Of a DNA stretch of 64,000 nt, positions 38,014 through 38,386 are shown one piece after another. The first letter of the stretch is position 1, and every line of letters begins with the position of its first letter. Source of the stretch: Escherichia phage ECO111 5-P; the sequence record OR844765. One strand, 5' to 3'. The position numbers and the translations under genes were made by a program. The notes beneath the pieces are model-generated. The model ran no database searches, had not been told where the DNA came from, and worked only from the letters and a program-made list of their open reading frames with translations.

Positions 38014-38062
38014 GTTTACTTCTCCAGTAGTTGTGTTATTATAGACCTATCAACTACTGGAG
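38014..38062 (+). promoter_or_regulatory. early promoter (GTTTAC, 17 nt, TATTAT) whose -10 is bracketed by a 12-bp perfect inverted repeat; 3-prime arm contains the SD
   Basis: Arms ctccagtagttg (38022-38033) and caactactggag (38051-38062); TATTAT 38037-38042. Confidence 0.6.
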
Positions 38063-38068
38063 AACAAA

Positions 38069-38386
38069 ATGAAAACCATCGATTGTAAAGCAGAATTTAA
38101 GATTTTTTATCACGGTTCAAGTAGTTCAGCTAACATCGAAAACATGCTTTGTCCTCCTGAGGAAACAGGAGTTCTGTCTGAAACTGGACGTAAGAAAAAC
38201 TTGGATCGTGTATTCTTTACTGAAGATATCGGTTTAGCAAAGATTTATGCAGGACGAGCAGCACGCTCTTATGGAGGTGAACCACGTCTCTATCGAGTAA
38301 TTTCTCCGGTAGACGTAGTTCAAATGAATAATACTAAAGGTGCTACAGTTTATCACGCTGAATGGGCCTTTTGCGAGGAAATATGA
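38069..38386 (+). CDS. hypothetical protein (105 aa) with H-G-S motif
   Basis: FYHGSSSS and downstream RLYRV segments; weak resemblance to NAD-binding ADP-ribosyltransferase/Tpt1-type folds. Confidence 0.45.
   Translation: MKTIDCKAEFKIFYHGSSSSANIENMLCPPEETGVLSETGRKKNLDRVFFTEDIGLAKIYAGRAARSYGGEPRLYRVISPVDVVQMNNTKGATVYHAEWAFCEEI

Follow-up and report, generated by a model that had tools for sequence, protein, structure and literature searches.

Why would an early promoter of a T4-like phage lie inside a perfect inverted repeat that also contains the Shine-Dalgarno sequence (SD) of the next gene? This question is raised by two loci, here called site 1 (from position 38014) and site 2 (from position 50746), in the 64,000 nucleotides (nt) of Escherichia phage ECO111 5-P (sequence record OR844765) that we analyzed and refer to as the window. 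The window comes from a close relative of RB69 (Mosigvirus, T4 family; best match 98.6% identity over 2.5 kb), and its + strand, which carries both sites, runs in the direction of early transcription. Our analysis indicates that the two sites are T4-type early-promoter cassettes of the PeSL family, which combine an early promoter, a stem-loop and an SD with its ATG (Arbiol et al. 2010, PMC2839356; Comeau et al. 2014, PMC4122927), and that the untranscribed spacer of each promoter encodes an anti-SD arm that probably serves the translational insulation of read-through RNA, that is, RNA started at promoters further upstream.

A sequence-only reading of the window had described, at each site, a GTTTAC-N17-TATTAT promoter within a perfect inverted repeat whose 3' arm carries an SD just ahead of the ATG, and both features are present as described (Table 1). 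The palindromes, given there as 12 bp, are in fact longer. Site 1, which reads GTTTAC-TTCTCCAGTAGTTG-TGT-TATTAT-AGACCTAT-CAACTACTGGAGAA-CAAA-ATG(38069), forms a perfect inverted repeat of 14 bp (predicted -20.9 kcal/mol), and site 2, which reads GTTTAC-TTCTCCTCTGGTT-TTGA-TATTAT-AACCATATC-AACCAGAGGAGAA-TAAT-ATG(50801), forms one of 13 bp (predicted -23.7 kcal/mol). The two are built alike: the 5' arm begins at the base following the -35 hexamer, the -10 hexamer lies inside the loop, and the 3' arm ends in GGAGAA, the SD of the next open reading frame (ORF). The anti-SD (TTCTCC or TTCTCCTC) stands directly 3' of the -35 hexamer, 39-42 nt ahead of the SD. Past the stem, the tails are CAAAATGAAAA at site 1 and TAATATGTTAG at site 2, and the SD and tail of site 2 (GGAGAAUAAUA) resemble the 11-nt consensus of RegB/S1 targets (GGAGAAUAAAA). 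The ORFs that flank site 1 are missing from T4 between gene 41 and dmd.

Table 1. Promoter-hairpin elements and related features of the window, with comparable T4 promoters in the last row (energies are predicted).
Feature	Position	Strand	Remarks
Site 1, -35 hexamer GTTTAC	38014-38019	+	Directly 3' of the TAA stop (38011-38013) of the upstream ORF
Site 1, spacer between -35 and -10		+	17 nt
Site 1, 5' arm TTCTCCAGTAGTTG	38020-38033	+	Occupies the promoter spacer; anti-SD formed by the first six bases of the arm
Site 1, hairpin loop	38034-38050	+	17 nt; contains TG, -10 and predicted start (~38049)
Site 1, -10 hexamer TATTAT	38037-38042	+	TG ahead of the -10
Site 1, 3' arm CAACTACTGGAGAA	38051-38064	+	Carries the SD GGAG (38059-38062)
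Site 1, downstream ORF	38069-38386	+	ATG 38069; 105 aa, phrog_2110, function unknown; dmd just downstream
Site 2, -35 hexamer GTTTAC	50746-50751	+	4 nt after the TAA stop (50739-50741) of a motB-like gene
Site 2, 5' arm TTCTCCTCTGGTT	50752-50764	+	In the promoter spacer (17 nt)
Site 2, hairpin loop	50765-50783	+	19 nt; contains TG, -10 and predicted start (~50781)
Site 2, -10 hexamer TATTAT	50769-50774	+	TG ahead of the -10
Site 2, 3' arm AACCAGAGGAGAA	50784-50796	+	Carries the SD GAGGAG (50789-50794)
Site 2, downstream ORF, motB.2 (RB69 annotation)	50801-51325	+	ATG 50801; 174 aa, function unknown
Third copy, GTTTAC-TTCTCCTC...-TATAGT...GAGGAGAA-ATG	830-888	+	-13.5 kcal/mol
Fourth copy, two-part stem TCCTC/GAGGA and TAGATG/CATCTA	14596-14655	+	-12.0 kcal/mol
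Early promoter with weak spacer-to-SD stem TTCCTCTAGG/CCAAGAGGAA	37580-37641	+	3' of the gene 41 terminator
Second class, spacer pairs with +1 region	1279-1320, 5463-5500, 15724-15765, 16024-16060, 39326-39365, 60752-60790, 61261-61300		SD free
Third class, small hairpin within the spacer (AACCA/TGGTT)	8122-8162, 49211-49251		
Terminator-then-early-promoter composites	789-860, 14485-14630, 37553-37610, 43173-43240, 63788-63860		
T4 (NC_000866) promoters with an anti-SD arm (L171-L173)	ATG 8161, 53885, 62740, 65355, 130253, ~136275, ~166749		-12 to -24 kcal/mol

Chance does not readily explain the arrangement. Perfect inverted repeats of at least 13 bp with a loop of 3-45 nt occur in the 64 kb at sites 1 and 2 only, against 0.08 expected (mean of Markov-1 simulations), and GTTTAC-N16-18-TATWAT has eight matches in the window, all on the + strand, against 0.21 expected. 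The complementarity is also specific to each site. When the window was scanned for early promoters of the T4 type with an SD and an ATG behind them, the + strand yielded about 22, and the duplex of each spacer with its own leader (-22.7 kcal/mol at site 1, -22.3 kcal/mol at site 2) ranks first of 22, compared with -8.8 and -12.4 kcal/mol when the same two spacers are combined with the leaders of other promoters. A common protein operator was considered and ruled out, because the arms differ from site to site while pairing is kept. That difference with retained pairing had been pointed out from the two copies, and it holds far more strongly across orthologues (see below).

Folding of read-through RNA (with 60 nt of upstream context) and of the promoters' own transcripts (started 7 nt after the -10), the comparison proposed in the sequence-only reading, predicts the switch that it had claimed: at both sites the probability that the SD is unpaired is 0.00 in the read-through RNA and 0.75 in the promoter's own transcript. 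The read-through RNAs are more stable than shuffled sequences (z = -3.07 at site 1 and -3.39 at site 2), with the hairpin in both the minimum free energy and the centroid structures, while the promoter-initiated leaders fold no better than shuffles (z = -0.17 and +0.63, respectively). At both sites the whole 5' arm precedes the -10, so that transcripts of the embedded promoter cannot contain it, whatever their exact start, as had been supposed. These calculations support every part of the earlier interpretation that could be computed. What it missed is the membership in the PeSL family and the commonness of the design: both of its sites stand, each on the + strand, but they are not the only copies, as others lie at 830, at 14596 and, in a weak form, at 37580.

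We propose that a polymerase coming from an upstream promoter would transcribe both arms, that the RNA would fold into a hairpin of 13-14 bp (about -21 to -24 kcal/mol), and that this hairpin would bury the SD of the next gene and leave the read-through RNA untranslated; the untranslated ORF might additionally be prone to Rho-dependent polarity and decay. The embedded promoter would start downstream of its -10, about 2 nt ahead of the 3' arm, and give an mRNA without the 5' arm, in which the SD is open. The gene would then be translated solely from its own immediate-early transcripts, and its synthesis would end with the shut-off of early promoters and, possibly, with RegB cleavage of the exposed SD (GGAG sites, A-rich tail), after which read-through or middle-mode RNA would be unable to restart it. 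What the analysis shows is the geometry of the sequence, the predicted thermodynamic switch, the complementarity specific to each site, the enrichment over chance and the compensatory evolution described below; use of the promoter and its start point in ECO111 5-P, folding of the RNA in vivo, read-through itself and how strongly translation is affected are inferred.

Read-through into both genes is to be expected from their surroundings. In the region from 43.2 to 52.6 kb, where a terminator scan found no strong terminator on the + strand, site 2 is preceded by five early promoters and one of MotA type; site 1 lies 434 nt 3' of the 37580 promoter, the presumable source of read-through into it. 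We also considered translational coupling, by which the stem would be opened by a ribosome that finishes translating the preceding gene, and judged it unlikely given the distances from stop codon to stem, which are 6 nt at site 1, 10 nt at site 2 and 13 nt in T4. With the footprint of a ribosome, stems that start 6 or 10 nt past a stop codon are largely beyond the reach of a terminating one.

During T4 infection, RegB cleaves the SD of motB.2, and this nuclease requires single-stranded RNA (Durand et al. 2006, PMC1702504); a form of this leader with an open SD therefore exists during T4 infection. RegB/S1 acts on the same GGAG-type SDs that are at issue here, and the SDs of T4 motB.2 and of regB itself are among its targets (PMC1702504). 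It is a nuclease acting in trans, whereas the hairpin would act in cis, blocking ribosomes and perhaps also shielding the SD from RegB. A review of T4 attributes the tight control of regB to a typical early promoter and self-cleavage at its own SD, with no mention of a hairpin, and the shut-off of early promoters is described in reviews as incompletely understood (PMC3014915, PMC2988021).

Besides RegB/S1, three published systems are close to what we describe. The first is the PeSL family itself. Sites 1 and 2 read TTTACT-N17-TATTAT with a TG before the -10, in agreement with the T4/PST consensus TTTACW-N17-TAYWAT for the strong, sigma-70-type early promoters of these cassettes (PMC4122927); their stable stems bracket the -10, and published stems also lie between -35 and -10 or overlap the -10; they end 3' in an SD and an ATG, are intergenic among small ORFs of a variable region, and the same cassette is found before different genes (cef in phage PNJ-9). 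They differ in that the SD itself forms the 3' arm, that a T-run is absent and that an effect on the translation of read-through RNA is predicted, and the published T4/PST pair is drawn with its stem-loops upstream of the promoter. The authors who described PeSL stem-loops took them for terminators or attenuators that also act as linkers in recombination, and make no mention of translation (PMC2839356, PMC4122927).

The second system is the hairpin that masks a ribosome-binding site (RBS) and contains an internal late promoter, established for T4 e, soc, 49 and I-TevI (PMC3014915), so that the analogy drawn in the sequence-only reading was accurate; segB and Aeh1 mobE also belong to this group (PMC3014915; PMC2988022), and according to Edgell et al. 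all known cases are late genes (PMC2988022). There, as predicted here, the long RNA hides the SD and the shorter RNA of the internal promoter, which lacks the 5' arm, is translated. Those genes are late and have late promoters (TATAAATA), whereas sites 1 and 2 have early sigma-70-type promoters (-35 GTTTAC, 17-nt spacer) and lie in early regions; the late device delays expression, while sites 1 and 2 would confine it to an immediate-early burst by blocking later translation. The third system is bacterial: a CT-rich anti-SD in the untranscribed part of sigma-54 promoters silences read-through expression (Levy et al. 2017, 10.1101/086108). The position of the anti-SD, in the untranscribed part of the promoter and close upstream of the SD, is the same. 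The sigma-54 case concerns motifs of 3-5 nt in synthetic libraries, unlike the phage sites with their sigma-70-type -35 and -10, co-evolving helices of 13-17 bp and an anti-SD in the -35/-10 spacer. By these comparisons, sites 1 and 2 are PeSL family members that would work like T4 late-gene RBS hairpins and sigma-54 insulators. Early sigma-70-type promoters in RBS-masking hairpins are new relative to the late-gene and sigma-54 cases, although an older description may exist.

Conservation of the hairpin was analyzed by comparing motB.2 promoters in phage GenBank records with the aid of a promoter-pattern scan. The motB.2 stem of RB69 is identical to that of the window, and that of ZQ3 (JS09-like) has one mismatch. 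Elsewhere the arms change and pairing persists: the stem is TTCTCCTCTAG/CTAGAGGAGAA in ESCO47, TTCTCCTCATG/CATGAGGAGAA in the Dhakavirus phages JS98, VR5 and Bp7, and TTCTCCTCTAGTTG/CAACTAGAGGAGAA in a motB.2-type cassette of ECO26.1, which makes at least four different inner stems at motB.2 (RB69-like, ESCO47, JS98-type and ECO26.1) apart from that of T4. The latter is an unrelated 17-bp stem with three G.U pairs and a predicted -23.7 kcal/mol (TCCTCGGT-AGTTGTGGT / ACCATAGCT-ACTGAGGA). In the Kanagawavirus Klebsiella phage KLB31 (L114, ~160-203), the motB.2 anti-SD GACCTCC is placed 3' of the -10 (TATGAT), still ahead of the expected +1, and pairs with GGAGGTC at the SD (-15.9 kcal/mol), which is the same logic in another geometry. 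An alignment of 12 cassettes shows compensatory changes in 5 of 14 pairs, with a covariation score of 0.214 against 0.054 for shuffles; none of 500 shuffles reached it, and all slid registers scored lower. The compensatory evolution of the hairpin spans three genera.

In a further sample, IMG/VR cassettes were selected solely by GTTTAC-TTCTCC-N11-TAYWAT, a pattern that leaves the inner spacer unconstrained, and the helix extends there by 3.6 bp with the cognate arm, compared with 0.8 bp with non-cognate arms (p < 5e-5); extensions of at least 5 bp occur in 7 of 16 cassettes and in 2.6% of non-cognate pairs. For the gene downstream of site 1, 50 loci were compared, and many lineages keep [A/T]TCTCC:GGAGA[A/T] while the remaining spacer is variable. 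We also observed that phage PNJ-9 (L108, 330-406), which lacks motB.2 at this place, has a motB.2-type cassette (GTTTACTTCTCCTCTAG...AAGAGGAGAA) directly ahead of cef, an arrangement consistent with cassette-mediated deletion or shuffling.

The design is not confined to the window. In T4, 7 of 31 scanned early promoters contain the full switch (motB.2, nrdC.8, regB, denV, 30.8, alc and ndd.4; Table 1), and a looser definition raises the number to 10 of 31, where shuffled spacers give 1.2 (no more than 3 in any of 100 shuffles); for the window, the corresponding values are 5 of 21 and 0.5. The best partner of a T4 spacer is its cognate leader in 7 of the 31 promoters (p < 5e-5). It should be noted that the alc and alt.-3 promoters of T4 are near-identical cassettes, and that the T4 denV cassette closely resembles the family of site 1. 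At ndd.4 (NC_000866, 166749-166764; L173), the annotated ATG lies within ATGGAGG, which is SD-like for an in-frame ATG 15 nt downstream, and the true start may lie 5 codons further downstream than annotated.

Several observations weigh against insulation as the selected function, and the first of them bear on its main rival, the published reading of these stem-loops as terminators or attenuators of upstream transcription. Inclusion of the SD would then be incidental to a long stem in a short leader. In a transcriptional fusion, one PeSL stem-loop of RB49/phi1 is reported to have lowered the expression of lacZ behind it to an extent similar to rrnB T1 (PMC2839356). Moreover, three orthologous promoters of the site 1 gene (L010, L014 and L015, ~530-600) have a true terminator that overlaps the -35 in place of the anti-SD: the leader TATCAACTACTGGAGAA is kept, and the spacer is replaced by the hairpin GGGGCTTACAGCCCC and a T-run, with the -35-like CTTACA in the loop of this hairpin. 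Upstream transcripts would be blocked at the same locus by other means. Terminator-plus-promoter composites are also common in the window itself (789, 14485, 43173 and 63788). Sites 1 and 2, in turn, have no T-run, their loops measure 17-19 nt and the terminator scan flagged neither, and on this sequence evidence we rejected their identity as intrinsic terminators. The part of the spacer that is conserved across orthologues is the anti-SD hexamer beside the -35, which a plain terminator would not need, and the promoters at 830 and 14596 mask the SD despite canonical terminators just upstream (789-822 in the former case, at 14485 in the latter). We consider it unlikely that termination accounts for sites 1 and 2.

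A further set of orthologues of the site 1 promoter (L035-L050) spares the SD, their spacer pairing with the +1 region, and seven promoters of the window form this second class of hairpin as well (Table 1), which bears on whether SD masking is the selected trait. The orthologues with a terminator or an SD-sparing hairpin, and the seven SD-sparing hairpins in the window, suggest that selection may have favored a more general blocking of upstream transcription, of which SD masking would be only one form. In addition, a survey of 134 promoters found 12 native pairings of SD and spacer, compared with 12.3 when spacers were swapped and 3.0 for shuffles. It follows that a generic anti-SD motif, present in a subset of spacers, makes up much of the general signal; site specificity is shown separately, by the duplex energies and the helix extension, and this part of the signal rests on the longer stems. 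Finally, the promoters of ECO111 5-P are putative, as they are predicted from a consensus, and templated quasi-palindrome mutation, which occurs in T4, could perfect stems in the absence of selection.

This last process belongs to another explanation, in which the inverted repeat acts as DNA (as a cruciform, a linker for recombination or the operator of a protein) or has no function and simply arises when cassettes are shuffled and quasi-palindromes corrected. The cassettes are clearly mobile, with one promoter-leader module found before different genes (motB.2, or cef in PNJ-9; and, for the site 1 type, T4 denV, L129/L130 and the site 1 gene), and PeSL-mediated recombination has been demonstrated (PMC2839356). 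A shared operator is at odds with arm sequences that vary between sites, and loops of 17-19 nt disfavor cruciform extrusion. The T4 orthologues rely on G.U pairs, which are C.A mismatches on the opposite strand, and the sense strand folds more stably than the antisense strand (-17.8 versus -14.6 kcal/mol; 11 of 15 sites, p = 0.035), a comparison biased by the preselection of these sites on sense folding; promoters that lack the switch show a smaller asymmetry in the same direction. A neutral origin, for its part, sits poorly with the enrichment in T4 (10 of 31 against 1.2) and with conservation across three genera. All in all, we regard a DNA-level or neutral explanation as quite improbable.

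Stable hairpins right after stop codons are classic 3' stabilizers, and the hairpin could instead be an element of RNA stability or processing, which would protect the 3' end of the upstream mRNA or be cleaved later so as to free the SD. The AU-rich, RNase E-like loops and the SD-sparing hairpins at other promoters of the window fit such a role. It does not account for the anti-SD:SD pairing that invariably forms the base of the stem, nor for the confinement of the 5' arm to the untranscribed spacer, and we hold it to be the most improbable of the explanations considered here.

Turning to the meaning of translational insulation for T4-type phages, early expression in T4 halts abruptly a few minutes after infection, and most early genes are also present on persisting read-through or middle-mode RNAs. 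A cis-acting device that leaves such RNAs untranslated for selected genes would explain how proteins such as RegB or Alc could be restricted to a brief pulse, and would give a function to PeSL stem-loops that lack terminator features. It would also widen the use of a promoter within an RBS hairpin, known for turning on late genes, to the turning off of early ones, and would mean that promoter-embedded anti-SD insulation, known from synthetic sigma-54 libraries, is heavily used by a natural virus. As T4 motB.2, regB, denV and alc share the design, the idea is directly testable in the model phage. A broader claim, which we put forward tentatively and with slightly more doubt than confidence, is that translational insulators make up between roughly a quarter and a third of the early promoters of T4-type phages (in T4, those of regB, alc, denV, motB.2, nrdC.8, 30.8 and ndd.4), whose genes would never be translated from delayed-early or middle read-through RNA. 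If so, insulation would constitute a general and unrecognized level of control over timing, by which a pulse of expression is hard-wired, possibly in cooperation with RegB and Rho polarity, and many PeSL stem-loops labeled as terminators would have to be reinterpreted as translational devices.

The remaining promoters of the window show how varied these elements are. In the third and fourth copies, at 830 and 14596, the predicted probability that the SD is unpaired rises from 0.00 in the read-through RNA to 0.53 in the own transcript and from 0.02 to 0.70, respectively; together with those of sites 1 and 2, the genes downstream of these copies are small early ORFs of unknown function. The terminators of the composites are canonical hairpins, often with both a UUCG loop and a T-run, with the early promoter within about 10-100 nt further on, which is the arrangement drawn for the T4/PST PeSLs. 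In the third class, the promoters at 8122 and 49211 have an identical 30-nt core (GTTTACAACCAAGGATGGTTGGAGTATAAT) and a common start region (TCTATCTTAAC) and precede two different genes 41 kb apart; they are a repeated PeSL-type promoter cassette.

Hairpins of the second class, for example TTGATAGGACT/AGTCCTATCAA and ACGATAGGAAGA/TCTTCCTATCGT, have predicted energies of -12 to -16 kcal/mol; here too, the loop contains the -10, and RNA started at the promoter itself is without the 5' arm. One of them bears directly on site 1: the promoters at 5463 (5463-5522) and 38014 (38014-38071) have the leader TATAGACCTATCAACTACTGGAG in common. Complementarity to the SD end of this leader is confined to the 38014 spacer, the 5463 spacer pairing instead with the AGACCTAT portion of the leader.

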